Shown: positions 502 to 58,013, numbered from the stretch's first letter. The stretch: 64,000 bases of DNA from Berkelbacteria bacterium GW2011_GWA2_35_9 (GCA_000991185.1 LBRB01000001.1:4080-68079), one strand, 5' to 3'. The notes: generated from the letters alone by a model not told the origin. Numbers and translations are program-made.

Positions 502-525
502 CCATTTTTTTATTACTTAATCCAA

Positions 526-552
526 ATATGCACGTTCCTGGAATGTGCATAT
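526..552 (+). terminator. Hairpin atatgcac-N11-gtgcatat followed by T-rich tract; candidate rplL terminator
   Basis: 8-bp perfect inverted repeat seen directly; weak U-tract. Confidence 0.45.
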
Positions 553-631
553 TTGTGACTGTTTAATTTCTCTAAATTATTTGCTAAAATAGAATAGTCA
601 ATCGATTAATATAATAGAGGGAAGTGTTCTT

Positions 632-976
632 ATGAATTTGGGTGTAATTAAAAAAGCTGAGGCTCCTTTATCGACGGGTGAAGAAATTAATCAATCTCAG
701 GGTGGAGATGTTGAAATTAAACCTGGTGTTGATATAGCTGAAAAACCAAAAGATGAAGAGGTAAAGAGTGATATTTTTTCAAAAGATGAAGATAATTCTG
801 GTTTATCTGCAGAATTTACTAATCAAAATCAGATAATTGATGCAAGTAATCCTGACATTGATGAAGTAAAAAAACCAGCTGTTGATCTTGAAAAAGCGGG
901 AAAAATGGTTTTTGGAAATAATGAAATAAATGATTTTAAGGATTTTGCTGATAAATTTAATCAAATAGTTTACTAA
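632..976 (+). CDS. Small acidic hypothetical protein (114 aa), translationally coupled to downstream ATPase
   Basis: ORF with RBS-like agaggga; stop TAA overlaps next ATG (TAATG at 974-978); Asp/Glu/Lys-rich, low complexity; no recognisable domain. Confidence 0.5.
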   Translation: MNLGVIKKAEAPLSTGEEINQSQGGDVEIKPGVDIAEKPKDEEVKSDIFSKDEDNSGLSAEFTNQNQIIDASNPDIDEVKKPAVDLEKAGKMVFGNNEINDFKDFADKFNQIVY

Positions 977-3459
977 TGCCTGAGATATTTTTAATTGGAT
1001 TAATTTTAGGAATAGCCATTCTTGGTTTCAGTTTTTACAGTCATAATAAAGAGAAAATTAAGTTTGTGACAACTATCACTAATATTGTGACTTTTAAAAT
1101 TATCGTTCCCAAGGAAACAATTCGTAAAGAAGACTCGAGCGCTAGTGATAGCGCTAAAGATTTCAAAGAAGCAATTGCACCGATGGAACAATTTTTTTCA
1201 GCGATTTCATCAGTATTTGAACGAGAAATTGTTAAAGATTATGCCAATATTCAAGATGTGATTAGTCTGGAAATTGTTGCCAAAGATAATTTAATTTGTT
1301 TCTATTTAACCTGCCCAGCAGATCATTCGGAAATGATAAAAAGACAAATTTTAGCTTATTATCCATACGCAGTTCTCGATGTCGTTCCAAATCACAATAT
1401 TTTTGATATTCAAGGCAATGAAAATCAATTTGTTTCTTGTGCCGGTCTACGAGCTAACAAGCGTTTTATCTATCCGATAAAAACTTATAAAAATTTAGAT
1501 GTTGATGCGCTTAATGGTTTGACAAATTCAATTTCAAAACTTGGGATGCATTCATCGGTTGCAATACAAATTCAAATCAAACCGATTAGCGATCGCTGGA
1601 GGATCTATCCCGCTTTAGCGGCAAGAGAGGTTTTGGAAGGCAAAACTAACTATATTCACAGTAATTGGAAAACACGATTTTTGAATCAAGCTCAAGAAAT
1701 GGTTTTGAATTCAATTGCAAAAAGTAGTAGTAAGGATGGGGGAGCGTCGGGAGGAAAAAGTTGGCGTCAAACACCAGTTCAGGAAGACTTAATGAAAGCC
1801 TTTAACGAAAAAGCTAGCAAACCGGGTTTTAAAACTTATATAAGAATAGTCTCAGTTTCGAACGAAAAATCAGTCGCTGAAAGTCATCGAGAAAATATTA
1901 TCTCAAGTTTTTCTCAATTCAATGCCCCGGCTTGGAATAGTTTTATACCAATCCGATATACCATTAATAATTACCGAGTTGTAAAAAATTTCATATTGAG
2001 AATTTTTGAGAATAAGCACTCAATGATATTAAATAGTGAAGAAATTGCTTCTATTTTTCACTTGCCAACCCGTTTTGTTGAAACACCGAATATCCAGTGG
2101 TTGCAGTCAAGAACTTTACCAGCACCAGCTAATTTGCCAACTGAAGGTATTATTATCGGCGAATCAATTCATCGAGGTGAAAAAGTTCCAGTTAAAATTA
2201 AAGATGAAGATCGACGCCGACACATTTTTATGATTGGAAAAACCGGTGTTGGTAAAACAACATTGTTTGAAAATATGGTTGATCAAGATATCCGAAATGG
2301 CAAAGGGATTGCATATTTGGACCCAAACGGTGATGCGGTTCAGTCAATATTGGAGAAAATCCCTAAAGAAAGAGCCGAAGATGTTATCTATTTCGATCCA
2401 GCTAATACTGAAAACCCGATGGGTTTAAATTTACTTGAGTGGGACAATGATGAAGAAAAAGATTTCTTAATTGCTGAATGGCTTGAAATGTTTTATAAGC
2501 TTTACGATCCAAATAAGACTGGAATAATTGGACCACAGTTTGAACATTGGGGAAGAAATGCCGCCCTGACCGTGATGAGTCTTCCCGAAGGTGGAACCTT
2601 AATCGATATACCAAGACTTTTTACCGATGATCAATTTCGGGAACGAGCGATTAAAAGTGTTCAAGATCCTATTGTTAAAGCTTTTTGGCAAGAACAATTA
2701 GCCAAAACTGCCGATTTTCATAAATCAGAAATGTACAATTATTTTATATCTAAATTCGGACGATTTATGACTAATAAAATGATGCGCAATATTATTGGTC
2801 AATCAAAAAGTGCTTTTGATCTTAGAAAAATTATGGATGAGGGAAAAATATTACTAGTCAATTTGTCAAAAGGTGAGTTAGGCGAAATGAATTCTTACCT
2901 TTTAGGTATGGTTTTAGTTTCAAAAATTCAGTCGGCAGCTTTTTCAAGAGCTAATATTCCTGAGGCGGAAAGAAAAGATTTTTATCTGTACGTGGATGAG
3001 TTTCAAAACTTTACGACCGATAGCTTTGCGACAATTTTATCGGAGGCAAGAAAATATCGATTGTCGCTAAATGTAACTAATCAATACATTGCGCAATTAA
3101 CTGAAAAGATTAGAGACGCTGTTGTTGGAAATGCCGGTACATTAATTTGTTACCGTATTGGAGCCGGCGATGCGGAATATATGGTTAAAGAATTTCCTAG
3201 CGTAACGATTGACGATATGGTGAATTTAGATAAATATACAACCTATACAAAATTGTTGATCGATTTAACGCCATCAAAACCGTTTACTATGCATGGCGTT
3301 TTAAGTCCAATAGAAAAAAATCAAGCGATGAGGGAAGCAATTGTACAATTATCAAATTTGAAATATACTCATACTAAGAGTGAGGTTGAAAAATTACTTG
3401 ATAAAAGATATAAAAAAGAAAATATTGATAAAGAGAGCGGTATTAATGTTTTAGAGTAA
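976..3459 (+). CDS. Membrane-anchored P-loop ATPase, TraG/VirD4/TrwB-like (FtsK-HerA superfamily), paralog 1
   Basis: 827 aa; N-terminal TM helix (IFLIGLILGIAILGFSF). Large N-domain with motif EEIASIFHLP. Walker A FMIGKTGVGKTT, DPNGDA, Walker B YLYVDEFQNF, ARKYRLSL, TNQYIAQL. Confidence 0.6.
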   Translation: MPEIFLIGLILGIAILGFSFYSHNKEKIKFVTTITNIVTFKIIVPKETIRKEDSSASDSAKDFKEAIAPMEQFFSAISSVFEREIVKDYANIQDVISLEIVAKDNLICFYLTCPADHSEMIKRQILAYYPYAVLDVVPNHNIFDIQGNENQFVSCAGLRANKRFIYPIKTYKNLDVDALNGLTNSISKLGMHSSVAIQIQIKPISDRWRIYPALAAREVLEGKTNYIHSNWKTRFLNQAQEMVLNSIAKSSSKDGGASGGKSWRQTPVQEDLMKAFNEKASKPGFKTYIRIVSVSNEKSVAESHRENIISSFSQFNAPAWNSFIPIRYTINNYRVVKNFILRIFENKHSMILNSEEIASIFHLPTRFVETPNIQWLQSRTLPAPANLPTEGIIIGESIHRGEKVPVKIKDEDRRRHIFMIGKTGVGKTTLFENMVDQDIRNGKGIAYLDPNGDAVQSILEKIPKERAEDVIYFDPANTENPMGLNLLEWDNDEEKDFLIAEWLEMFYKLYDPNKTGIIGPQFEHWGRNAALTVMSLPEGGTLIDIPRLFTDDQFRERAIKSVQDPIVKAFWQEQLAKTADFHKSEMYNYFISKFGRFMTNKMMRNIIGQSKSAFDLRKIMDEGKILLVNLSKGELGEMNSYLLGMVLVSKIQSAAFSRANIPEAERKDFYLYVDEFQNFTTDSFATILSEARKYRLSLNVTNQYIAQLTEKIRDAVVGNAGTLICYRIGAGDAEYMVKEFPSVTIDDMVNLDKYTTYTKLLIDLTPSKPFTMHGVLSPIEKNQAMREAIVQLSNLKYTHTKSEVEKLLDKRYKKENIDKESGINVLE

Positions 3460-3462
3460 ATT

Positions 3463-6129
3463 ATGCCATTTTTAACTATAGTAATCATTGCTTTAATCGT
3501 TTATGTCAGTATAATTGGCATCGGGATTTTGTGGTGGATGATAATTAAAAATAATCGATCCATTAGTCAAACAGATGACAAAAAATATATATTGCTAGAA
3601 ATATTGGTGCCAAAAAATAATGAGAAAGGACCCTTGGCGGCAGAAAGTATGTTTGCGTCAATGCATGGTATTTTTCAGGAAGCAATCGAAAGTCAAGAGA
3701 AATTAAGTTTTGAAATAGCCTCTAAGGGAAAATTTATTATTTTTTATGCTCATATTCCAGCCCATCTAAAAGATTTTATTGAAGGACAAATTTACTCGCA
3801 ATATCCAACTGTCGAAATATCGGAGGTTAAGGATTATGCATCGGTTGTTATGCGAGATCCAAACCAAAAAGCGATTGTAGGAACTGAATTAAAGTTAAAT
3901 AAAGATTATGTTTTTCCAATAAAAACCTTTTTAAATTTTGAGGTTGATCCGTTATCTAGTATTACTGGAATGTTATCTAAGATTGAAGAAGGGGAGCAAT
4001 TATGGATTCAGATAATTGTTCAGCCAATTGCTGATGATTGGCAAGATAGGGGAGTTAAATATGTTAAATCGGTTAAAGAGACTGGCAAAGGACCAGAAAG
4101 TTTAGAATTTAAAAAAGAATTAAAAAAAAGATTATCCAGTCTATCAAAAGATTTGGCTCAAAGTGCAAAAGGAGTATTTGCCTCGTCATCTGATAGTGCG
4201 TCCAAAGATTCTGGGGGGAAAGATATCGTTTTACCAGGTCCAGTTGAGGCTGCGTTATCAGGTATTAATGAAAAGATTACTAAGCTTGGGTTTTTGACGA
4301 CCATTCGGATAGTGTGTATTTCGAACGATGAAGAATTGTCAAAAAATAAACTCAATGGTTTAGTCGGAGCATTCAAACAATTCAATACAGTCAATTTAAA
4401 TGGTTTTGGAATAAAAGAAATTTTATCTGGTCAGGAAATATTGGAAGAATATATACTACGAAAAACAAATGTCAACGCTTTTGTTCTAAATATTGAAGAA
4501 TTAGCATCGATTTATCATTTGCCGAACATATCGGTTGAAACTCCTTTAATTAGTTGGGCAGGAAGCAAAAAAGGTGAACCACCATCTAATTTGCCAATAA
4601 AAAGCGAAGGGGAAAAGAATATCGTCCCGATTGGAGAAACAAATTTTAGAAATTATCGAATGCAATTTGGGATTAAACAAAAAGATAGGCGATTACACAT
4701 ATATACGATTGGAAAAACCGGAACTGGTAAATCAACGATGCTTGAAAATATGATAATTGATGATATTTTATCGGGAAGAGGAGTGGCTGTAGTTGATCCG
4801 CACGGGGATTTAATTGATCATGTTTTAGAATTTGTGCCGGACAGTCGGATTGATGATGTAGTCTATTTCTCTCCAGCCGATCGAGAGTATCCTGTTGGGT
4901 TTAATCTGCTTGAAAATGTTGATCCTGATTTAAAAAATGTAGTTGCCTCCGGAGTTGTTGGAATATTCAAAAAAATCTTTGGAGAATCATGGGGTCCAAG
5001 ATTAGAGTATATACTCAGAAATGCAGTTTTATCGCTTTTGGATTATCCAGATGCGACGATGCTTGAAATAATTAAAATTTTAATTGATAAAAGTTTTCGC
5101 AAAAAAGTATTAGAGTACGTAAAAGACCCAGTACTATTAGATTTTTGGTTAAACGAATATGATAAATATGATCAAAAATTTAGAACTGAAGCAGTAGCGC
5201 CTATTCAAAACAAGGTCGGACAATTTTTATCAACTACTACTATTCGAAATATAGTTGGGCAGCCGGAATCAACAATTAATTTGAATAATATAATGGATGA
5301 AAGAAAAATTTTATTAATTGATTTATCAATTGGAAAAATAGGGGAGGATACAGCCGCTTTGTTAGGGTCAATGATGATTACAAAAATTCAGCTCTCAGCT
5401 ATGCAAAGAGCTCATATTTCAGAAGCAGAAAGAGTTGATTTTTATTTGTATGTTGATGAGTTCCAAAACTTTGCAACTGATAGTTTTGCGACTATACTTT
5501 CAGAAGCTAGAAAATATCATTTAAATTTAGTGATGACCAATCAATACATAGCTCAGATGCCTGAGATTGTCAAAGAAGCGATATTTGGAAATGTGGGAAC
5601 ATTGATATCATTCAGGGTTGGAGCAGGAGATAGTGAAGCGTTGGTTAAAGAGTTTGAACCAATTTTTGATTCTAACGATTTGGTTAATTTAGCCAATTAC
5701 AATATTTATGTAAAAATGGCGATTGATGGAGTAACATCACCGGCATTCTCGGCAGTTTCATTGGCGCCAAAAAAAGAAGGTTATCATAATCGAGATAAAA
5801 TTATTAATCGTTCACGGGAACAATATGCTAAATCGAGAGAAGAAGTTGAACAAAGACAATCGGATGTTTCAGGACATTTTGATGATGACCAAAATGTTTC
5901 AGACAAGTCAAAAGGAAATAAAATAACTAAAATTGATGATAATATATACCAACAGGATGGTGAAACATTCTTTAATGATGACAAAGGAAACAGATGGTAC
6001 ATACAAAGTAAGACCAAAGACCAAAGATCAAAGACCAAAAAATTACCAAAAGAAGAGAAAATAAATACAATTACAGAGGATAAAATTGATCTTGAAAATG
6101 ACTTGTTGCTACCACTCGATAAATTGTAA
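3463..6129 (+). CDS. Membrane-anchored P-loop ATPase, TraG/VirD4/TrwB-like, paralog 2, with Lys/Asp-rich C-terminal tail
   Basis: 888 aa; 4-nt spacing to upstream gene. Same architecture: TM helix, N-domain motif EELASIYHLP, Walker A YTIGKTGTGKST, DPHGD, YLYVDEFQNF, ARKYHLNL, TNQYIAQM. Low-complexity K/D/Q-rich C-terminus. Confidence 0.6.
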   Translation: MPFLTIVIIALIVYVSIIGIGILWWMIIKNNRSISQTDDKKYILLEILVPKNNEKGPLAAESMFASMHGIFQEAIESQEKLSFEIASKGKFIIFYAHIPAHLKDFIEGQIYSQYPTVEISEVKDYASVVMRDPNQKAIVGTELKLNKDYVFPIKTFLNFEVDPLSSITGMLSKIEEGEQLWIQIIVQPIADDWQDRGVKYVKSVKETGKGPESLEFKKELKKRLSSLSKDLAQSAKGVFASSSDSASKDSGGKDIVLPGPVEAALSGINEKITKLGFLTTIRIVCISNDEELSKNKLNGLVGAFKQFNTVNLNGFGIKEILSGQEILEEYILRKTNVNAFVLNIEELASIYHLPNISVETPLISWAGSKKGEPPSNLPIKSEGEKNIVPIGETNFRNYRMQFGIKQKDRRLHIYTIGKTGTGKSTMLENMIIDDILSGRGVAVVDPHGDLIDHVLEFVPDSRIDDVVYFSPADREYPVGFNLLENVDPDLKNVVASGVVGIFKKIFGESWGPRLEYILRNAVLSLLDYPDATMLEIIKILIDKSFRKKVLEYVKDPVLLDFWLNEYDKYDQKFRTEAVAPIQNKVGQFLSTTTIRNIVGQPESTINLNNIMDERKILLIDLSIGKIGEDTAALLGSMMITKIQLSAMQRAHISEAERVDFYLYVDEFQNFATDSFATILSEARKYHLNLVMTNQYIAQMPEIVKEAIFGNVGTLISFRVGAGDSEALVKEFEPIFDSNDLVNLANYNIYVKMAIDGVTSPAFSAVSLAPKKEGYHNRDKIINRSREQYAKSREEVEQRQSDVSGHFDDDQNVSDKSKGNKITKIDDNIYQQDGETFFNDDKGNRWYIQSKTKDQRSKTKKLPKEEKINTITEDKIDLENDLLLPLDKL

Positions 6130-6229: not shown

Positions 6230-6664
6230 GATGAGGTTGGGTCGGGAAAAGAGAGAAATTGCACGAAAAAAAATAATCCTAAAAATTACCAATTTTGAGT
6301 AGGTGAGTACTAATTGTGGATAAAAATACTAAGACGCACAATGGAACTTGTGCGACTTAGTTATATCAAATTTAACAATACGATCAGTCGCTATGTGCTT
6401 ATGTGCGTTGGTAGCTTAAATATATATACAATTATAAATATACATATTTCAACACGAATTATCTTAGATTATATTTGTCTCTATTTTTTACATTCACAGT
6501 ATGACTATATTTGATAATTACCTACTATTTGAGTACTCCTAACAGGTAAAAAACCGCAAATTTGCGATATAAGCAATGATTTTATTATTGATGATAAATT
6601 ACTCGTAAAATATAAAAAAAATTACACAATAATTTGCATATGCAATATGTAAAAATAAAAAAAA

Positions 6665-24601: not shown

Positions 24602-25678
24602 ATGTCAATTGACAAAGAAGGTATGGTTAGTAGTATAAAGAAGTTAGACACTCAGAATATGATCTCTTCTATTGAAGAAATGCCTTTACAGGTACAAGAA
24701 GCATGGGGGCAAGCCCAAAATATTAAACTTGATTACAGAGCAAAAAATATTAAAAATATATTAGTCGCTGGTATGGGTGGGTCAGCACTTGGGGCTAGAA
24801 TTATCAAGGCACTATTTCAAAAAGAACTTAAGGTCCCAATTGATATATATAATGATTATTCGATCCCGGCTTTTGTTAACAAAGACACACTATTTATTGC
24901 TTCGAGTTACTCAGGGGACACTGAAGAAACACTTGACGCATTAGAAAAGGCTATAATTAAAACCAAGATGATTATCTCAATTGGATCAGGCGGAAAACTA
25001 ATAGAAAGATCAAAAGAACTTAATATTCCCTTCTACCACATAAAACCAAGCCATAACCCATGCAATCAACCAAGAATGGCAGTTGCTTACTCTATAATTG
25101 GGCAACTAGCTTTTTTTGATAAAATTGGTCTAATTAGCCTAAGTAATGATTGGAACAATAATATTATTAAGTTATTAGAGAGTAATAATAATAATTATTC
25201 ACTAAAAATTAATCCCAATCATAACTTAACTCAAGAACTTGCGGCTAAGATATACGGAAAAATACCTGTCATTGTATCGTCGGAGCATCTTGTTGGAGCA
25301 ATATACACATCACGCAATCAATTCAATGAGAACAGTAAAAATTATGCTGATTACCACATCATCCCTGAGCTTAATCACCACATACTTGAAAGTTTAAGCT
25401 TCCCGAAATCCAACTCCAAAAACTTAGTTATAGTTATTATTAACTCTAAGTTTTTTGATAAAAGGAACCAAAAAAGATTAAAAATTACCAGTGAAATTGC
25501 AATAAAAAATAAGATTGAAGTTGAGTACGTTAATCTTTTTGGTGAGACAAAGGTCGAGGAAGTGTTTGAATCAATTCACTTTTTTGCATATGTGATATAT
25601 TACCTTGCTATGTTAAACGGCTGTGATCCATCTTTTATTCCGTGGGTAGATCTATTTAAGAAAAAAATGAAAAAATAA
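24602..25678 (+). CDS. Bifunctional phosphoglucose/phosphomannose isomerase (SIS domain), copy 1
   Basis: 358 aa; VAGMGGSALGA and SYSGDTEET SIS motifs; upstream of manC. Confidence 0.75.
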   Translation: MSIDKEGMVSSIKKLDTQNMISSIEEMPLQVQEAWGQAQNIKLDYRAKNIKNILVAGMGGSALGARIIKALFQKELKVPIDIYNDYSIPAFVNKDTLFIASSYSGDTEETLDALEKAIIKTKMIISIGSGGKLIERSKELNIPFYHIKPSHNPCNQPRMAVAYSIIGQLAFFDKIGLISLSNDWNNNIIKLLESNNNNYSLKINPNHNLTQELAAKIYGKIPVIVSSEHLVGAIYTSRNQFNENSKNYADYHIIPELNHHILESLSFPKSNSKNLVIVIINSKFFDKRNQKRLKITSEIAIKNKIEVEYVNLFGETKVEEVFESIHFFAYVIYYLAMLNGCDPSFIPWVDLFKKKMKK

Positions 25679-28662: not shown

Positions 28663-29745
28663 ATGAATGATAATAATTTATCGAGAATTTTGGATATTGA
28701 AAACGAATATTCTACCATTGACAAAAGTAATATTTTACAGAATTTACTTGATTTTCCAGATCAACTTAATACCGTTTTTGAAGAAGTAAAAAAACTAACT
28801 ATTCCGTCTAATTACATACAAATCAACAAAGTACTTTTTATTGGCGTTGGTGGATCAGCGGTTGGGGCGGAAATGACCATCGGTTTAGTTAAGGAAAATT
28901 CTCATTTACCGATTGAATTATGTCGTGATTATCAAATTCCAAATTGGGTAGATAAAAATACATTGGTAATTGGATCGTCATATTCAGGCGGAACTGAAGA
29001 GACAGTGACTGCTTTTGAAAATTCAGCACAGAAAGGAGCAAAAATATTCGGTATTACTTCCGGAGGAAAGATCGCTTCGATTTGTCGTAAATACAAAGCT
29101 CCCTATTATGAAATAAATTACGGGAGTGAGCCAAGAATGGCACTGGGTTATTCTTTAGGAGCGCAAATTGCATTACTAAAAAAATTGAAAATATACGATA
29201 TTGAAGATAGTGAAATTGAGAAATCTATTAAAACACTTGATAAATTAATTGAGAAAATCAGTAGTGGAGTTGAGACAAATAATAATTTTGCCAAGCAACT
29301 GGCTAACAATATTTATGGAAAAATACCGGTATTTGTTGGATCATCAACCCTTTCGGCTGTGGCAAAAAGAGCCAAACAGCAGATCAATGAGAATACGAAA
29401 TCAGTCGCTTTATTCGAACCATTACCAGAAATGAATCACAATTTTGTAGTCGGTTTACAATTTCCTGACAATATAAATGAAAAAATATTTATCATCCTTT
29501 TGCAATCTAGCTACGATCATCCAAGAAATAAATTGCGTTATCAAATTTTACAAACTATTTTTGATCAAAAAAATATTGCTTATGAATCGGTTATAATTCA
29601 ACCAACAGTCTCAAGATTTTCGGAATTGATTAGTGTAGTTTCTTATGTTGATTTTGTTTCTTATTACCTGTCTCTTTTATACCAAGTTGACCCAAGTCTA
29701 ACTGAAACAATTGAATATATTAAAGAAAAATTAGCCAAAGAATAA
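28663..29745 (+). CDS. Bifunctional phosphoglucose/phosphomannose isomerase (SIS domain), copy 2
   Basis: 360 aa; IGVGGSAVGA and SYSGGTEET; paralog of 24602-25678. Confidence 0.75.
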   Translation: MNDNNLSRILDIENEYSTIDKSNILQNLLDFPDQLNTVFEEVKKLTIPSNYIQINKVLFIGVGGSAVGAEMTIGLVKENSHLPIELCRDYQIPNWVDKNTLVIGSSYSGGTEETVTAFENSAQKGAKIFGITSGGKIASICRKYKAPYYEINYGSEPRMALGYSLGAQIALLKKLKIYDIEDSEIEKSIKTLDKLIEKISSGVETNNNFAKQLANNIYGKIPVFVGSSTLSAVAKRAKQQINENTKSVALFEPLPEMNHNFVVGLQFPDNINEKIFIILLQSSYDHPRNKLRYQILQTIFDQKNIAYESVIIQPTVSRFSELISVVSYVDFVSYYLSLLYQVDPSLTETIEYIKEKLAKE

Positions 29746-30964: not shown

Positions 30965-32545
30965 ATGAAAAAAACAGCTTTAATAATTTTAGATGGTTTA
31001 GGAATATCACCGGATAAAAAAGGTAATGCCTTTTTAAATGCAAAAACACCCGGATTAAATTTTATGCTTAAAAATTGTCCATCAACTTTACTCCAAGCCA
31101 GTGGAGAATCGGTTGGGTTACCTTGGGGAGAGATGGGAAATAGTGAAGTCGGTCATACGAACTTAGGTACCGGAAGAGTGGTTTTACAGGATTATCCATT
31201 AATATCAAAAAGTATTGAAAATGGTTCATTCTACGAAAAGATTGTTTTAAAAGATATGGTTAATTATGTTAAAAAAAATAAGAGTAACTTACATATACTT
31301 GGTATCGGTAGTGACGGAGGTGTTCATGGTCATATCGATCACATACTCGCCGGATTAGAACTAGCTAAACGAAATAATTTAAAAAATGTCTATATTCATA
31401 TTTTTTCCGACGGAAGAGATAGCTCGCCTAAAGCGTTGAAAAAATTTTTAGACAAGATAAATAATGCTTGTCAAACGCTCGGGGTTGGTAAAATTGCTAC
31501 GGTAGTTGGGCGTTATTACGCAATGGATAGAGATAAAAATTGGGATAGAACTAAAATCGCTTACGACTTAATTACTCGATTAGACGGTAATAAGTATCCT
31601 GATTATTTAACAGCAATTGATAGTCAATACCGTAAACGAAAATCGGACGAATTTTTAGAGCCGTGTGTTTTAGAAGGAGCTGAAGCGGTTAAAAACAATG
31701 ATGCGATTTTTATGACTAATTTTCGTTGCGATCGGGCTATTCAGTTAGCCAAAGCTTTTACGGACGACAATTTTATTGGTTTCAAAAGAGTCAAAATTTC
31801 AAATCTATATTTCGCAGGAATGGTATTGTATCAGGAAAATTTAAAAATTAATCCAATATTTTCTCCGGTTGATCTTAATAATCCAGCCACAAATTCTTTA
31901 GCTAATCCATTGGGAAAAATAATTAGCGAACATCGTTTATCTCAAGCTCGAATTTCAGAAACTGAAAAATTTGCCCATGTGACATATTTTTTTAATGCGG
32001 GAGAAAAAAAACCATTTAGAGGCGAAAAGCAAATATTGGTGCCGTCACTTAAAATTTCTAGTTATGATAAAAAACCCGAAATGTCAATTACTGGAGTGGT
32101 TACAAAAATTTTAGCTGAGGTAGCTAGTGAAAAAGATTTTATATTAATAAATTTTGCTAATCCTGATATGGTCGGTCACAGTGGAAACCTGAATGCTGCA
32201 ATTCAGGCTGTTGAGTATGTTGATGAAGCGCTAATAAAAGTTGTTAATGTTATGTTAGCCAGAGATTATTTTGTGATGATTACTGCCGATCATGGTAATT
32301 GTGAAGAAATGATTAATGCTAAAACTGGCGAGATCGATAAAGAACATTCAGTTAGTCCGGTGCCTTTTATTTTAGTTGATCAAATTAAACAGATCGAGCT
32401 AGAAGAATCAAACAGCAGTTTAATTAAATTGACTAAACGGCAACCAATCGGTTTATTGGCGGATATTGCGCCAACGATTTTAGAAATATTAGAGATAAAA
32501 AAACCGGTTGAAATGACTGGTCAGTCTTTAATCGGCATGATCTAA
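30965..32545 (+). CDS. gpmI: 2,3-bisphosphoglycerate-independent phosphoglycerate mutase, copy 1
   Basis: 526 aa; GNSEVGHTNLGTGRVV, ITADHGNCE. Confidence 0.9.
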   Translation: MKKTALIILDGLGISPDKKGNAFLNAKTPGLNFMLKNCPSTLLQASGESVGLPWGEMGNSEVGHTNLGTGRVVLQDYPLISKSIENGSFYEKIVLKDMVNYVKKNKSNLHILGIGSDGGVHGHIDHILAGLELAKRNNLKNVYIHIFSDGRDSSPKALKKFLDKINNACQTLGVGKIATVVGRYYAMDRDKNWDRTKIAYDLITRLDGNKYPDYLTAIDSQYRKRKSDEFLEPCVLEGAEAVKNNDAIFMTNFRCDRAIQLAKAFTDDNFIGFKRVKISNLYFAGMVLYQENLKINPIFSPVDLNNPATNSLANPLGKIISEHRLSQARISETEKFAHVTYFFNAGEKKPFRGEKQILVPSLKISSYDKKPEMSITGVVTKILAEVASEKDFILINFANPDMVGHSGNLNAAIQAVEYVDEALIKVVNVMLARDYFVMITADHGNCEEMINAKTGEIDKEHSVSPVPFILVDQIKQIELEESNSSLIKLTKRQPIGLLADIAPTILEILEIKKPVEMTGQSLIGMI

Positions 32546-32546
32546 A

Positions 32547-34067
32547 ATGAAAAATGTTTTATTAATTGTTTTAGATGGTTGGGGCATTGCACCGTATTGG
32601 GGTGGTAATGTTTTTGCAGTTGCAAAAACACCTGTATACACTAATTTTTTAAATAATTATCCAAATTCAAAGCTTCATGCTCATGGATCGTATGTCGGTT
32701 TGCCCGGCAATGAAATGGGAAATAGTGAAGTTGGTCATTTGAATATTGGGGCTGGACGAATTGTTAAACAGGATAGTTCTATTATAAATCAAGCGATTAG
32801 CGATGGAACTTTATTTACTAATCAAATATTTTTAGAATCAATTGAAAAAAGCCAAAAAAATAATCGCCCAATTCAAGTCATGGGTTTACTTTCGAACGGA
32901 ATGGTTCACTCTTCATTTGATCATCTAATGGCATTGATTGATTTGTTCCAAAAACATAATTTTAAAAATGTTTTTTATCATATTTTCACAGATGGTCGTG
33001 ACAGTCCGCCACAGAGTGGCATTATATTTTTAAAAAAATTGATTGAGAAAATAAACCAAACTGGAGTTGGAAAAATTGCGACATTATCTGGTCGTTTTTA
33101 CGCTATGGATAGAGATAAAAATTATTCAAGAACAACATTATCGGCGGATGCGATTTGTCGTGGAGTCGGACAGCACATTTACAATCCAATCAAAGCATTG
33201 TCTGATTGTTACGCAAAAGGCTTAACCGATGAATTTATTCCCCCTTTGGTTTTAGTTGATAGTGACAATCTAGCAGTTTTTGATATTCGGGAAAATGACG
33301 ATATTATTTTTTATAATTTTAGGCAAGATCGGGCTCGGCAAATAATTGAAAAAATTTGTACATATTATCCATCAATAAAAATAATTGGTTTTATTCCCTA
33401 CGGAATCGAAGATAATAAAAATTTAAAAAATAATTTGCGATCGGCTTTTTCGCCGTCTAAGCCAATCAATCATTTAACTGAATTTTTGTCCTTTAATAAT
33501 TTAAAACAATTGAAAATTGCTGAAACGGAAAAATTTAATCATATTACTTATTTTTTTAATGGTTTAAACACAAAAAATTTTCAGCTGGAGGATCGAATAT
33601 TAATTAATTCAAAAAAAGTTTCTAATTATCGTCTTTTGCCAGAAATGTCAGCCAAAGAAATTACTCAAAAAACGATTCGAGCGTTAGCCAAACAAGATTA
33701 TTATTTTATCTTGGTCAATTATGCCAATGCCGATATGGTTGGACATACCGGTGATCGTTTAGCGGGGAAAATTGCGGTTGAAACAATTGATGAACAACTT
33801 TCAATTTTGGTAGATACTGCGATACAGAATAATTATTCTGTCGTTATTACTGCTGATCATGGCAATATTGAGGAAATGCTAAATCCACAAACAGGCGAAC
33901 TTCAAACTTCACACAGTAAAAATGAAGTTCCGTTGATTATTATTGACAATCAACTCAGAGGAAAAATTACACTCAATAATGGGATATTGGCTGATGTTGC
34001 ACCAACAATTTTAAAAATAATGGATTTAAAAAAACCAGCTGAAATGACAGGCAAAGAATTATTTTAA
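32547..34067 (+). CDS. gpmI: 2,3-bisphosphoglycerate-independent phosphoglycerate mutase, copy 2 (tandem paralog)
   Basis: 506 aa; GNSEVGHLNIGAGRIV, ITADHGNIE. Confidence 0.9.
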   Translation: MKNVLLIVLDGWGIAPYWGGNVFAVAKTPVYTNFLNNYPNSKLHAHGSYVGLPGNEMGNSEVGHLNIGAGRIVKQDSSIINQAISDGTLFTNQIFLESIEKSQKNNRPIQVMGLLSNGMVHSSFDHLMALIDLFQKHNFKNVFYHIFTDGRDSPPQSGIIFLKKLIEKINQTGVGKIATLSGRFYAMDRDKNYSRTTLSADAICRGVGQHIYNPIKALSDCYAKGLTDEFIPPLVLVDSDNLAVFDIRENDDIIFYNFRQDRARQIIEKICTYYPSIKIIGFIPYGIEDNKNLKNNLRSAFSPSKPINHLTEFLSFNNLKQLKIAETEKFNHITYFFNGLNTKNFQLEDRILINSKKVSNYRLLPEMSAKEITQKTIRALAKQDYYFILVNYANADMVGHTGDRLAGKIAVETIDEQLSILVDTAIQNNYSVVITADHGNIEEMLNPQTGELQTSHSKNEVPLIIIDNQLRGKITLNNGILADVAPTILKIMDLKKPAEMTGKELF

Positions 34068-39490: not shown

Positions 39491-40204
39491 CTATTTATAA
39501 CAAAGTGGTTTAATCTTGTAATAATACTTGATTACATTTTTTATTTGATTTGAAAGTTCAACCGTTTCAATATTAAACCTTGGGTCTTTAGATAGATTTC
39601 GACTAAGATTATAGACTAATATTTTAGCTCTTAATCTTGTGATTAACAAAAAACGATTGCTTTTAAGTATTTCATGCGATTTGAATAAAAAACTTTTATA
39701 GAATTCGTCAATAGGTTTGATGTTATAATATTTAATAAAATCAGGACTGAACTCAGAAAGTTTTAGTGTTTCGATGTTGATATTAAATTGTTTGGCGAGT
39801 TGATTAATTTTAGAGAGATTTTCAGCGTTACCAATTAGAATTTGATATGCAAATGAAACAAAACCAATATCTTTTAAAGCGTTAAAGAATAGAGTTTTAA
39901 ATGATCTTTTTTTATAACCTCGAATTATAATTAAATATGTTGTTCGTTTAATATTTTTATCGATTAAGGATATCGGCAGTAACTTTTCATCCAACCATAC
40001 TTCTCCTTGGGCTGTAATTTTATAAATATTATTTTCGTATTTTACAAAGTTACTATTGATAAGCTTGGTCAAATTTGTTTTAACTATTCTTTTTGAGAAC
40101 GAAAAATATCTAATAATTTCATCGAATGAAACATTTTTCAAATCGTCGATTAAAATTAATAATTTCGTTGTAGTTGAAATATCTTCAATATTTTGCATAT
40201 GCAA
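39491..40204 (-). CDS. Hypothetical protein with N-terminal winged-helix-like region
   Basis: 237 aa; N-terminus resembles PadR/MarR wHTH (IIRYFSFSKRIVKTNLTKLINSNFV...YKITAQGEVWL); C-terminal domain unknown. Confidence 0.4.
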   Translation of the reverse strand: MHMQNIEDISTTTKLLILIDDLKNVSFDEIIRYFSFSKRIVKTNLTKLINSNFVKYENNIYKITAQGEVWLDEKLLPISLIDKNIKRTTYLIIIRGYKKRSFKTLFFNALKDIGFVSFAYQILIGNAENLSKINQLAKQFNINIETLKLSEFSPDFIKYYNIKPIDEFYKSFLFKSHEILKSNRFLLITRLRAKILVYNLSRNLSKDPRFNIETVELSNQIKNVIKYYYKIKPLCYK

Positions 40205-47607: not shown

Positions 47608-47808
47608 AAATACTTAAAAAGACAATATCCCCATACCCCAATTTGTCAATATATGTCATTATTGTCACAGTTGTTAGTTTATGTTTATTTTACTCCTTAC
47701 TCCTCACTTTTTACTCCTTACTCCTTCCCCTCGACAACAGACAGGTAAAGGGTAGGATACCTCAAAACCGTGAAAATGTAGTATATTTTTGTGTTTTTCA
47801 CGGTTTTG

Positions 47809-47837
47809 TTGACAAAAACATAAAATACTGCTATAAT
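47809..47837 (+). promoter_or_regulatory. Consensus sigma-70 promoter TTGACA-17-TATAAT; predicted leaderless transcript for fic
   Basis: -10 ends 9 nt before the ATG at 47847, no RBS; 9-bp inverted repeat CCGTGAAAA-N20-TTTTCACGG (47768-47805) abuts the -35. Confidence 0.55.
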
Positions 47838-47846
47838 ATAGTCAAT

Positions 47847-48728
47847 ATGACTAAAATACTTAATGTTTATAATAAGATAAATACCCTTAGAGAAAGATAC
47901 TACAAAGCCTCAGCTGGTAAAGAATCGTTGATTTCTCTAATTCTTGAAACTGAAGTGGCGGAGCAGGTATATAACTCAAATGCGATAGAGAATAGCACCC
48001 TTAGCCTTGAAGAAACAGAAAAAATATTACTCCAGATTGACTTAGACAGGTATATTACTGAGCGAGAAATATTTGAAGCAAAAAACCTTGCTCGAGTCGT
48101 ATCGTATATTGAAACAAGAGCCAAAGAACAAGAACTAACTCTTGATGTGATCTTATTACTTCACAAAATGTTGATTACTAATATTAGGGATGAGGTTGCT
48201 GGAAGATTCAGAAATGATAACGAATTTGTCCGAGTCGGAAATCATATTGCCCCTAACCCCAAAGAAGTGTTTAAGCTACTCGATAAAATGCTAGTACAAT
48301 ATAATGGCTCAAGCCACGATAATATAATTAAAAGAATTGCCAGATTTCATCTAGCGTTTGAAAGTATTCACCCATTTGTCGATGGTAATGGTCGTATTGG
48401 AAGAGTTCTAAATAATTATTTGTTAATTAGGGAAGGGTTTGTCCCAATCAACATTAAATTTATTGACCGAAAAAAATATTATAATGCTTTTAAAGAGTTT
48501 GATAACAATGGCTCAACGAGCATTATGGAAGAGATCGTTGGGAGAGCGTTAACTAATAGTTATTACAAAAGATTGGCTTATCTAGAAGGTAAAAAGATTA
48601 TTACTCTGTCAAACTACGCTAAGGAAAACAAATTATCTCATTCCAACCTAATTAACAAAGCCAACCGGCAGACTATCGAAGCGTTTCTAGAAAAAAATAT
48701 CTGGAAAATCACCAAGGATTATAAGTAA
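47847..48728 (+). CDS. Fic/Doc family protein (class II, N-terminal inhibitory motif), likely AMP-transferase
   Basis: 294 aa from Met at 47847; ORF-track start 47643 is a hydrophobic upstream extension before the promoter. Fic motif HPFVDGNGRIGR; inhibitory motif SNAIEN near N-terminus. Confidence 0.85.
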   Translation: MTKILNVYNKINTLRERYYKASAGKESLISLILETEVAEQVYNSNAIENSTLSLEETEKILLQIDLDRYITEREIFEAKNLARVVSYIETRAKEQELTLDVILLLHKMLITNIRDEVAGRFRNDNEFVRVGNHIAPNPKEVFKLLDKMLVQYNGSSHDNIIKRIARFHLAFESIHPFVDGNGRIGRVLNNYLLIREGFVPINIKFIDRKKYYNAFKEFDNNGSTSIMEEIVGRALTNSYYKRLAYLEGKKIITLSNYAKENKLSHSNLINKANRQTIEAFLEKNIWKITKDYK

Positions 48729-48741
48729 GTAAATCAGCACC

Positions 48742-48759
48742 CACTTATGTCAATAGAAA
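48742..48759. repeat. Direct repeat copy ACTTATGTCAATAGAAAA (downstream of fic)
   Basis: Matches 47590-47607; the pair brackets the ~1.15-kb fic cassette including its promoter. Confidence 0.55.
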
Positions 48760-48841
48760 AAAATAAAAGATAATAATTACCATGCAACTATCCGAAAACG
48801 AAAAACGGGATATAGAAAATAAATCTTAATATTAAACAACT

Positions 48842-49726
48842 ATGTCAGAAGAACAAAAAAGAATATTGGAAAAACAGTTGTGGGGCGTGGCGAATGCGCT
48901 CCGTGGCAAGATGAACGCCGACGAGTATAAAAACTATATTCTCGGTTTTATTTTCTACAAATACCTGTCCGAAAAGCTTGAGCGCTATGTCAACGAAAAG
49001 ATTATCTCAGGCGAAGATTTCACTTTTGCCCAAATTAAGGAGAAAACCAAACAAGGTCAAGAAGACATTGGGCATATCAAGATCGCCTGTATTGGGCATC
49101 TTGGTTATTTCCTCAAGCCTACTGAATTATTTTCGTATATCGTCAAAAAGGGCAAAGGCGAGATAAAAGATCAACCCAAATTCATCCTTGAAGATATTAA
49201 AAAGATTTTAGATGCGATAGAAAAAACATCTGCCAATACCGACAGCGAAGATGATTTTAAGGGACTTTTTGACGATGTTGACCTGACCTCGACTAAACTT
49301 GGTTCGCGGGAAAGCGAGAAAAACGAAGTTGTCGTGGAAGTGCTAACTCTACTTAGCGGAATTGACTTTAAGCTGGAGGACGCCAAAAGCGACCTACTCG
49401 GCGATGCCTACGAATATCTCATTGGTGAGTTTGCTGCTGGCGCCGGTAAAAAAGGCGGCGAATTTTACACCCCCGCCCAAGTTTCTCGCTTGTTAGCGCA
49501 AATAGTATCGCTCGATAAAAAGCGGCTCAAATCCGCCTACGATGCAACTTGCGGGTCAGGATCTCTTTTGCTCCGTCTTGGCGAGTTTACTGATGTTGTT
49601 AATTACTATGGTCAGGAACTTAACCCGACCACCTACAACCTTGCCCGAATGAATATGATTTTGCACGGTGTCCATTTTGATCATTTGAGGCGTAATGTCA
49701 AAATTGGTGGGCTGGTCATAACTTGA
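48842..49726 (+). pseudogene. hsdM: Type I restriction-modification methyltransferase subunit HsdM, 3'-truncated by IS insertion
   Basis: N-terminal HsdM domain (LWGVANALRGKM..YKNYILGFIFYKYLS), DATCGSGSLL (motif I), NMILHG. ORF then runs into the IS left inverted repeat and stops. Catalytic NPPF half and hsdS/hsdR are absent. Confidence 0.75.
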
Positions 49727-56467: not shown

Positions 56468-57123
56468 CAGTTTTTTAGTACTTTTTTTATAGATCGATCA
56501 ATCTCTAAAGCAATATTTTTAATTGTTTTTGCTCCATTAAATTCTAATACTTTATTATCATCAGATAATTTATCAATTACTGGCTGGGTTTGTTTTTCAT
56601 AAATTTCAAACCTTTTAGAAATTGCTTTACCATTATCATCATCTCTTTTTTCTAGTTTTATATGACATTTTTTACACTCAAACACTTTGTCAATTGATTT
56701 TGAATATGTATTTTCACACTTTGGGCAAATTAACCGATCGGCAATTCTTTCTTTGGCAATTTTTTGACTCAGACTCAAATGAATTACAACTATTTCATCC
56801 ATTTCTAAATATTTTTTAATTTTAAATATTATTCCTAATTGTTTTATTCTTCTAGGAAAACCATCAAAAATAATATTGTGTGGGTGACCGATCTTTTTTA
56901 TTTGATTAAAAATAATTTTTGAAAATATACGATCCGGAATCATTTTACCAACTGTAGCATAGGATTTAACGCTTTTACCAATTTTTGAATTAGATTCAAT
57001 CTCTTTTCTAATCAATTCTCCGGCTTCGATGATTGGAATATGATGTTTGGTTGCCAAAATATTTGCTTGAGTTCCCTTACCACTACCTTGTATACCTAAA
57101 AATATAATTATTCTTTTTTTCAT
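56467..57123 (-). CDS. adk: Adenylate kinase with zinc-binding LID
   Basis: 218 aa; P-loop GIQGSGKGTQ, LID CPKC...CKKCH. Confidence 0.9.
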   Translation of the reverse strand: MKKRIIIFLGIQGSGKGTQANILATKHHIPIIEAGELIRKEIESNSKIGKSVKSYATVGKMIPDRIFSKIIFNQIKKIGHPHNIIFDGFPRRIKQLGIIFKIKKYLEMDEIVVIHLSLSQKIAKERIADRLICPKCENTYSKSIDKVFECKKCHIKLEKRDDDNGKAISKRFEIYEKQTQPVIDKLSDDNKVLEFNGAKTIKNIALEIDRSIKKVLKN

Positions 57124-58013
57124 TCAATCTTAATTAAATATTTACCAGCAGTTATCTCACTGCTTTTTCCATCTAACATTGAAAATATTTTATCATCTTT
57201 TGTATAGAAAATATATTGATTAAAATTAATAAATGATTCGATTTTAGCTTCAAGTATTTCGCTATTAATTTTTGATTCAATATTATAGGCAAATAATTTG
57301 TTGTTATTTAAATAATAGATATTATTATTGTAAATATAAAAATCATCTGGCTTTTGATTAAGTTCAGCAATTAAATTTTTATTATTGTTTTTTAATTCGA
57401 CTGAATAAATTTCAAAAATGTTACTACGATCAACTACATAATAAAGCATTTTTTTATCAATCAAGAGATTAAATGGATTTAAGCTTTCATTGGCGATTTC
57501 CTCTTTATTCTTACCACTTAAATTTATAGTAAAAATTTTGTAACCGATACTTCTCTCGGCGTTTGAATATTCAGTATAAGCAATATTTTCACTCCCAAGC
57601 TCAAGATTATCTTTATTAAAATTAGATACCGTCAAAATTTTTTTACCGCTTGAGTTTAATGAAACTGTATACAAATTATCAACGTTGTCTTTACTCATTA
57701 CAATAAATAATTTATCGTTATTAATTCCCAGTACTTTTGTTACTTTTTCTTTTTCATCAGCGTCAGTAAAAATGACATTTTTATTCTGACCATCATATTT
57801 ATATATATCGGTTCTGACATTATCTTTATTATAAAAATAAATACTTTTGTATTCGACTGACTTGTTTACAGATGTGCTTTGTGTATTTTCAATATTTGCT
57901 TGTAAGGGTGTATTTGTTTCAGAACTTTTTTGGTTTTTAAAAAAACCAAAAAATAATATTAGAATTGAAATCAGAAAAAAAATATAGAGATATTGATTTT
58001 TAGTAGATTTCAT
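57120..58013 (-). CDS. Membrane-anchored hypothetical protein, beta-rich repeat (propeller-like)
   Basis: 297 aa; N-terminal TM, Asn/Tyr-rich repeated beta-strand pattern; inserted between adk and secY. Confidence 0.5.
   Translation of the reverse strand: MKSTKNQYLYIFFLISILILFFGFFKNQKSSETNTPLQANIENTQSTSVNKSVEYKSIYFYNKDNVRTDIYKYDGQNKNVIFTDADEKEKVTKVLGINNDKLFIVMSKDNVDNLYTVSLNSSGKKILTVSNFNKDNLELGSENIAYTEYSNAERSIGYKIFTINLSGKNKEEIANESLNPFNLLIDKKMLYYVVDRSNIFEIYSVELKNNNKNLIAELNQKPDDFYIYNNNIYYLNNNKLFAYNIESKINSEILEAKIESFINFNQYIFYTKDDKIFSMLDGKSSEITAGKYLIKIE

Follow-up and report, generated by a model that had tools for sequence, protein, structure and literature searches.

An operon encoding two paralogous DUF8128 ATPases, a candidate translocase pair, in a Berkelbacteria genome

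A three-gene operon between rplL and secDF

We analyzed a 64,000-nucleotide (nt) stretch of the genome of Berkelbacteria bacterium GW2011_GWA2_35_9 (GCA_000991185.1, LBRB01000001.1:4080-68079), hereafter the window, and in particular a block of three genes on its + strand (locus tags UR93_C0001G0008-10). These genes encode a small acidic protein of 114 amino acids (aa; 632-976) and two large ATPases, which we call A (976-3459, 827 aa) and B (3463-6129, 888 aa). Both ATPases belong to the DUF8128 family, whose members combine an N-terminal domain of the VirB4 type with a motor resembling that of the type IV coupling proteins (T4CPs), and they represent two ancient paralogues that are co-transcribed in Berkelbacteria. 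An initial annotation, made from the sequence alone, had described the block as a tightly coupled operon for a small acidic protein and a duplicated pair of membrane-anchored translocases; we followed it up with profile searches, structure comparison and comparative genomics.

The compactness of the block is borne out by open reading frame (ORF) calls and RNA folding, which show three closely spaced genes framed by strong hairpins. The stop codon of the small ORF overlaps the start of A within a TAATG at 974-978, as first read, while the spacer between the A stop (3457-3459) and the B start (3463) is 3 nt rather than the 4 nt initially given. On the 5' side, a stem-loop at 521-558 (+ strand) lies between rplL and the operon, directly 3' of rplL (-19.9 kcal/mol, z -5.9, none of 200 shuffled sequences as stable). 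It is likely a terminator or attenuator that marks the 5' boundary, and, with its weak U-tract, it could be either a terminator or a regulatory element for the operon downstream. On the 3' side, a second stem-loop (6328-6361, + strand; -15.8 kcal/mol, z -5.7) occupies the spacer between B and the convergent secF; it contains a terminator-like site at 6335-6354 on both strands and is likely a bidirectional terminator forming the 3' boundary. A promoter scan of the region was uninformative in this AT-rich DNA. ORF calls and Pfam labels also confirm the placement of the block, which is preceded by rplL (100-501) and followed by secF and then secD on the - strand. The GC content of the operon is that of its surroundings, and the locus is a vertically inherited chromosomal core operon, not a mobile one.

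Architecture and motifs of the two ATPases

A and B share 36% identity across 811 aa (E 2e-164), in agreement with the paralogy proposed for them. Each has a single hydrophobic segment, at residues ~4-22 of A and ~3-28 of B, with none further along, which confirms the one N-terminal transmembrane (TM) helix predicted in each. Because basic residues come right after this helix, the remainder of both proteins is predicted to be cytoplasmic. The DUF8128 domain follows at residues ~36-392 of A (nt 1081-2151) and ~37-384 of B (nt 3571-4614), and then the P-loop ATPase at ~393-780 of A (nt 2152-3315) and ~385-795 of B. B ends in an additional tail (residues 796-888, nt 5848-6126) that had been noted as rich in K, D and Q and is also rich in N; B-type orthologues range from 826 to 1208 aa, and their length differences lie mostly in this tail.

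Every motif quoted in the initial annotation is present in both proteins. In the N-terminal domain, EE[IL]ASI[FY]HLP starts at residue 355 of A and 345 of B. In the ATPase, Walker A spans 420-429 in A and 416-425 in B (IGKTGxGK[TS]T, starting at 420 and 416), and Walker B spans 670-679 and 661-670, respectively (YLYVDEFQNF, starting at 670 and 661); DP[NH]GD starts at 449 and 445, ARKYxL at 691 and 682, and TNQYIAQ at 701 and 692. Across 64 A- and B-type sequences, the Walker A residues G421, T423, G424, G426 and K427, the Walker B residues D674 and E675, and R692, Q703, Q707 and R727 are invariant. To judge from these residues, both paralogues look catalytically active and neither appears degenerate. 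In the structure model, the two Walker motifs are separated by an inserted helical region (helices 492-607). The Gly/Ser-rich stretch that had been taken for a linker before the ATPase (A 248-262) proves to be a low-confidence, disordered loop inside the N-terminal domain, about 130 more residues of which follow it, EEIASIFHLP among them.

Family assignment and VirB4-like fold

The precomputed Pfam hits of the identical 827- and 888-aa proteins place PF26449 (DUF8128) over the N-terminal ~350 residues. All listed close homologues carry PF26449 plus TrwB/T4SS-DNA_transf domains, and [quoted passage not shown] is one of the names frequent among them in the database. Each paralogue has more than 3,600 close homologues, the named ones from Berkelbacteria or other Patescibacteria, and the DUF8128 N-domain profile collects 5,327 cluster representatives at 50% identity. 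The proteins were therefore not unrecognized, and the locus is a typical case of a large family that had been catalogued before but is functionally uncharacterized.

Sequence models say little more about the motor. Our own Pfam search placed only the C-terminal half, and marginally, with TrwB_AAD_bind (24.6 for A and 25.8 for B against a cut-off of 20.5, the match covering the Walker A region only), DUF87 and TraG-D_C (24.5 and 24.1 against 22). The best NCBIfam matches are of the TraD/VirD4 type and fall 5-30 times under their cut-offs: SXT_TraD (67 for A and 39 for B, cut-off 366), TOL_TraD (45 and 23, cut-off 648) and the VirD4-like CD1115 model (41, A only, cut-off 250). The crenarchaeal DNA import protein CedD is also among the few matches (23.1 bits for A and 29.5 bits, E 3e-7, for B, cut-off 600). 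None of the VirB4 models of Pfam (CagE_TrbE_VirB, AAA_10, P-loop_TraG) matched A or B at E <= 0.1, nor did any VirB4 model of NCBIfam, and a profile built from the A/B alignment found only Walker-A-level matches to DotL, TrwB and RecA among PDB sequences, and no VirB4.

The fold is more telling. TrwK/VirB4 chains account for all of the 14 best Foldseek matches (E down to 1.4e-7, probability 1.0), and in the structure comparison A aligns with 268 residues of a TrwK/VirB4 chain. A has both a VirB4-type N-terminal domain and a VirB4-type C-terminal ATPase, the latter with a nucleotide-binding domain fold like that of TrwB and intact Walker A and B motifs. The N-terminal domain, initially considered to be of unknown nature, is thus VirB4-like, and in the overall plan it connects the TM helix to a motor like those of VirB4 and the T4CPs. 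The profile and Foldseek checks suggested for these proteins led to DUF8128 and a VirB4-like fold and not to a well-characterized coupling-protein family. Of the TraG/VirD4-like label, membership in the VirB4/VirD4/HerA-FtsK superfamily holds, but naming A and B coupling proteins proper goes too far, since the scores of the curated models are far too low and the plan is nearer to that of VirB4 or of the CedB/CedD proteins discussed below.

VirB4, such as TrwK of R388 or the Thermoanaerobacter pseudethanolicus C-terminal domain (PDB 7o42, 4ag5), combines an N-terminal alpha/beta domain with a RecA-type ATPase, as A and B do. A and B differ from it in having a TM helix of their own and in sequence profiles that favor TraD/VirD4; moreover, neither the window nor any related locus that we examined has genes for VirB3, VirB6 and VirB8, and genomes of the candidate phyla radiation (CPR) encode a true VirB4 as a separate protein, in many cases with its N-domain split off as TrsD. 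The membrane tether of A and B is reminiscent of VirB3-VirB4 fusions. With the T4CPs (VirD4, TrwB, TraD, DotL) they share a membrane-anchored P-loop ATPase of the hexameric type and, in the case of B, the variable charged C-terminal tail found in many of them. Unlike T4CPs, which have two TM helices, A and B have one, carry ~350 aa of VirB4-like DUF8128 between this helix and the motor, lack a linked relaxase or type IV secretion system (T4SS) from -6 kb to +58 kb, and belong to the chromosomal core as two ancient paralogues.

Distribution and evolution in Patescibacteria

We scanned GTDB with one genome per species, confirmed at least 436 loci and kept the best 80. These 80 span all major CPR classes, with sources in Berkelbacteria, Saccharibacteria, Peregrini-/Peribacteria, Gracilibacteria, Parcubacteria/Paceibacterota, many Microgenomates, WWE3 and Dojkabacteria. 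In an unrooted neighbor-joining tree, the split between A-type and B-type sequences was recovered in 60/60 bootstrap replicates. B-type genes occur in Berkelbacteria-type loci and, alone, in Dojkabacteria-type loci; this, together with the A|B split, indicates that the duplication is old. When the tree was rooted with plasmid outgroups, which are saturated, bootstrap values were 50/100 for the B clade, 41/100 for the A clade and 11/100 for CPR versus outgroup, and we used only the unrooted split.

The tandem A-B arrangement is confined to a Berkelbacteria-like clade, in which the conserved block reads rplA-rplJ-rplL-tgt-small ORF-A-~170-aa gene-B-secFD. A compacted form of this block, without tgt and the ~170-aa gene, is present in the window and in its nearest relatives, whose A is 96% identical. 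The survey of related genomes proposed for the three-gene block finds the block conserved, with the compacted form limited to these nearest relatives. Between gene A and its close relatives, there are 250 synonymous and 36 nonsynonymous codon differences, and gene A is under strong purifying selection. Because of the number of homologues, their CPR-wide spread, the rplJL/secDF synteny, the selection on A and the unshifted GC content, we regard A and B as core genes and not cargo.

Microgenomatia-type loci have a lone A-type gene, with genes for a XerC/D-type tyrosine recombinase (in 19 loci) and for the septation protein DivIC/FtsB (in 16) immediately behind it; DnaX follows A or B in 14 loci. 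Loci with such neighbors include L030, L035, L036, L039, L041, L045, L047, L051, L063, L067, L071, L078, L081 and L083 of our set. This adjacency hints at chromosome handling, or may simply be inherited synteny.

CPR-type genes and synteny were also found on contigs titled "uncultured Gammaproteobacteria", "Pseudomonadales" or "Nitrospirota" (L013, L017, L024, L032, L036, L039, L043, L046, L047, L051, L053, L062, L063, L066, L070, L071, L082). These are probably mislabelled or contaminated public bins.

The small acidic protein and a ~170-aa neighbor

The small protein is indeed acidic, with 25 D+E against 13 K+R and a net charge of -12. Compared with the close relatives L089 and L090, its frame and its overlap with A are kept, while 46 codons have changed nonsynonymously and 10 synonymously, 9 codons form an indel, and only the C-terminal ~35 residues are conserved. 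A homologue search retrieved only the protein itself from the database, with no match in Pfam, NCBIfam, PHROG or PADLOC. Small low-complexity ORFs lie directly upstream of A in other lineages too, and such positional analogues are barely alignable. The small ORF is a real, fast-evolving gene that is not detectably conserved beyond a genus-level group. As for its proposed role as a partner of the ATPases, it is translationally coupled to A, and nothing else in our analysis ties it to A and B.

In Berkelbacteria-type loci, the ~170-aa gene separates A from B, and in other classes it comes directly after the lone A-type gene (L001:12636-13151 and L003:12520-13047, and also L004, L005, L007, L015, L017, L018, L042, L058, L082, L087 and L088). 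It is absent from the window, by tblastn, and from the closest relatives. Its product, which has no Pfam match, consists of an N-terminal helix and a beta-rich part with the motif YxVPxNYASKSKLVxGD (47% identity between L001 and L003), and is likely a functional partner of the ATPases.

Relatives on plasmids and phages

Outside the phylum, tblastn gave weak matches that extend over nearly the full length and take in the N-domain; they come from 714 plasmid records (Bacillus, Streptomyces, haloarchaea, Sulfolobus) and 66 phage records. For the DUF8128/DUF87 ATPases of monoderm and archaeal plasmids and of Bacillus phages, the tblastn E values are 5e-23 to 1e-42, with 20-25% identity. The phage family phrog_5156 matches A and B end to end (E 3e-84 and 8e-90). 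The N-domain profile aligns by hhalign (99.2%, E 8e-20) with a 913-aa "DUF87" protein (P5635_00045) of a 65-kb B. subtilis plasmid (CP120602), and the two share an ILNxEEL motif. This plasmid gene is upstream of TcpD/TcpE-family and "conjugal transfer protein" genes, and the homologue HVO_RS19425 of Haloferax pHV1 comes directly after a "transfer complex protein". The plasmid and phage DUF8128/DUF87 ATPases are single-copy genes of mobile elements, in contrast to the chromosomal and duplicated A and B. As the same architecture is shared by plasmids and phages from monoderm bacteria and from archaea, the CPR genes would be a chromosomal, duplicated offshoot.

Among the phage homologues (H16-H30) are gp156 of phage G, ORF201 of 0305phi8-36 and proteins of SPO1-like phages, all from large Bacillus phages. 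A is covered to 84-92% in phage G, 0305phi8-36 and vB_BboS-125 and to ~55% in SPO1-like phages, and the 0305phi8-36 match also overlaps ORF200, annotated as "replication initiation by nicking". The closest non-CPR motor domain that we found is a stand-alone 395-aa ATPase domain on a Sulfitobacter mediterraneus plasmid (NZ_CP081110, L093:9010-10197), 36.6% identical to residues 381-775 of A (E 6e-70). This domain occurs without an N-domain or a TM helix, in a neighborhood of transposases and recombinases that contains no T4SS.

Possible functions of the ATPase pair

The Patescibacteria account for much of bacterial diversity and live attached to other cells. Their single member open to genetics cannot do without its T4SS, and nearly all of their genomes retain coupling-protein homologues at a distance from the T4SS. 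In a recent survey, VirB4 was found in 2,417 of 3,035 Patescibacteria genomes (80%), and 5,713 VirD4-type T4CP homologues in 2,918 of the same 3,035 (96%), about two per genome (Quinonero-Coronel et al., 2025; PMC12102498). Its Table S3 includes genomes in which two T4CP genes are adjacent or nearly so, while a VirB4/TrsD/VirB3/VirB6/VirB2 cluster is found separately. The T4SS cluster of Southlakia has been described as having no recognizable coupling and relaxase proteins (Wang et al., 2023; PMC10633639).

A close parallel to our pair comes from crenarchaeal DNA import, which requires two paralogous proteins, CedB and CedD, both essential (bioRxiv 10.1101/2024.09.27.615246). Each has a TM helix, a VirB4-NTD-like domain (NTD, N-terminal domain) and a HerA/VirB4-like ATPase domain, and a joint action resembling that of the hexamer of dimers of VirB4 was proposed for the pair (bioRxiv 10.1101/2024.09.27.615246). 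A and B share this plan and co-occur as two paralogues in the same way, a resemblance of plan that says nothing about orthology. The Ced proteins differ in that each of their NTDs covers a different part of the VirB4 NTD, while A aligns with 268 TrwK/VirB4 residues; A and B are moreover bacterial, their sequence similarity to the archaeal proteins is weak, and no CedA-like gene was identified. By this analogy, CedB/CedD can be considered the closest functional counterpart of the A/B pair.

We propose, with a probability of about one half, that A and B are a pair of translocase ATPases that would energize a channel encoded elsewhere, most probably a chromosomal relaxase-less T4SS. The two proteins may assemble into one or more rings at the cytoplasmic face of the membrane, possibly as two components combined in the manner of the VirB4 hexamer of dimers or of the CedB/CedD pair. 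Powered by ATP, such rings would thread a polymer, in all likelihood DNA but possibly protein, into a membrane channel, the most probable candidate being the chromosomal relaxase-less T4SS of most Patescibacteria, which resembles the FATA class of mating-pair formation systems (MPF-FATA). The small acidic protein might then act as a rapidly evolving accessory factor, its conserved C-terminal segment being the likely contact. A tie to T4SS biology is suggested by the full-length homologues on plasmids, where they lie near transfer genes, and in Bacillus phages.

Several observations weigh against this proposal. Among the 33 window ORFs that we scanned (the three of the operon, 10 others of >=360 aa and 20 of 205-429 aa) and in the 6 kb upstream, that is from -6 kb to +58 kb, there are no T4SS, relaxase, integrase or phage genes; the initial annotation was right about the lack of secretion or conjugation partners nearby, which says nothing of the rest of the chromosome. 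The scores of A and B lie below the cut-offs of the curated T4CP, VirB4 and CedD models. A and B probably belong to the T4CP homologues of the survey, and only 148 of those 5,713 are near virB4, while T4CP homologues as a whole are commoner than VirB4 (96% against 80% of genomes; PMC12102498). In Southlakia, the t4cp homologue is dispensable for epibiotic growth and the T4SS is essential (PMC12102498, PMC10633639). Because of the few homologues near virB4, the unequal spread and the dispensable Southlakia homologue, a T4SS-independent role would fit as well, and the authors of the survey wrote that exaptation "cannot be ruled out" (PMC12102498). Finally, the oligomer, substrate and partners that we suggest are all drawn by analogy with other systems.

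If such an independent role is considered, A and B could be a motor for DNA import or nucleic-acid scavenging, similar to CedB/CedD and working through ComEC or a VirB6-like channel, which would serve natural competence and the nucleotide dependence of CPR bacteria. Architecture and pairing agree with CedB/CedD, CedD is among the few NCBIfam matches, the survey figures and the Southlakia phenotype favor it, and Patescibacteria are naturally transformable through ComEC (PMC12857230). On the other hand, the CedD scores of 23-29 bits are far from the cut-off of 600, and comEC, pilin or competence genes lie beside the operon in none of the loci examined. The nearest full-length homologues outside the CPR are found in a plasmid with conjugation genes and in phages, which are export or transfer settings. 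Overall, we find this main alternative, a T4SS-independent import motor, rather unlikely.

A translocase similar to FtsK/SpoIIIE, which would pump the chromosome through the septum and/or help in Xer-mediated dimer resolution, seems to us improbable. FtsK/SpoIIIE is a membrane-anchored DNA pump of the same superfamily, a near-universal presence would suit such a housekeeping role, and the XerC/D, DivIC/FtsB and DnaX neighbors described above point in the same direction. With an E. coli FtsK motor sequence as query, we also found no canonical FtsK in the window and 83 loci (~1.4 Mb of CPR flanks), a weak point because the sample is small and biased. However, a separate ftsK is annotated in TM7x (PMC10768705), the locus tag of which was all that we found in the literature on FtsK in CPR. 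The Xer/DivIC adjacency is limited to one class-level clade and may be inherited, the FtsZ/FtsA genes of the window are 16 kb off and unlinked, and VirB4 chains, not FtsK, head the fold ranking. A and B are not canonical FtsK proteins: the FtsK_SpoIIIE Pfam model gives 14 bits for B, under its threshold of 24, and nothing for A, the gamma domain is unmatched in both, and they have one TM helix where FtsK has four.

An anti-phage or conflict-system ATPase of the HerA, DptH or MADS-mad8 type is very unlikely. PADLOC reports mad8 (E 2e-15) and weak HerA matches, there is some similarity to DptH, and homologues occur in Bacillus phages, but the matches span the generic ATPase core only, and the adjacent genes include no nuclease, Sir2, NurA, Dnd or other MADS partner. 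The near-universal, syntenic and vertical distribution, together with the selection pattern, is also atypical of defense islands. Even less credible is a decayed remnant of an integrated conjugative element that has lost its other genes: its closest full-length relatives outside the CPR are on plasmids and phages, but this explanation is largely refuted by the same housekeeping neighborhood in divergent genomes, the invariant catalytic residues, the excess of synonymous changes in gene A and the lack of an integrase, relaxase, repeat or GC shift.

Returning to the proposed translocase pair, the initial annotation was right about a duplicated, membrane-tethered pair, but the device is not unique to this organism, as the family is catalogued CPR-wide. 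What is new here is the VirB4-like identity of DUF8128, the paralogy and operon of A and B, their plasmid and phage relatives and the parallel with CedB/CedD. The value of the locus thus lies in a hypothesis for the family rather than in this window, namely a two-component membrane ATPase ring that bears on the divergence of VirB4 and the coupling proteins. In a broader and more doubtful version, the pair might form one hetero-assembly, a Patescibacteria-wide motor independent of T4SS and a bacterial counterpart of CedB/CedD, that imports or handles DNA or, alternatively, substitutes for FtsK in Xer-linked chromosome resolution. If so, it would serve organisms unable to make nucleotides, and the DUF8128 ATPases could represent an ancestral "VirB4-like" state from which canonical coupling proteins arose by loss of the N-domain.

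Other genes in the window

The other genes scanned are housekeeping genes, for a UvrD/AddA-like helicase-nuclease, ribonucleotide reductase, LeuRS, PheST, AspRS, FtsZ/FtsA, DinB, SecY, RpoA, glycolytic enzymes, RNase III and a sigma factor, and the 6 kb upstream of the window encode RF-1, YbaB, Pth, L1 and L10. Neither rpoB nor rpoC is in the window.

At 47643-49726, a Fic/DOC-family gene is beside an HsdM fragment that covers only positions 2-107 of the 311 of the N6_Mtase model. The patch at ~48-52 kb has a GC content of 0.37-0.40, against ~0.31 elsewhere, and looks like a decayed restriction-modification or toxin islet. Two ORFs on the - strand, at 39491-40204 (237 aa) and 57120-58013 (297 aa), have no Pfam match at E <= 1e-4. 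The second sits between secY and map (methionine aminopeptidase), where adenylate kinase is usual. The glycolysis cluster contains two paralogous bifunctional PGI-like (SIS) genes (24602-25678 and 28663-29745) and two adjacent iPGM paralogues (30965-32545 and 32547-34067), an unusual redundancy for a reduced genome.

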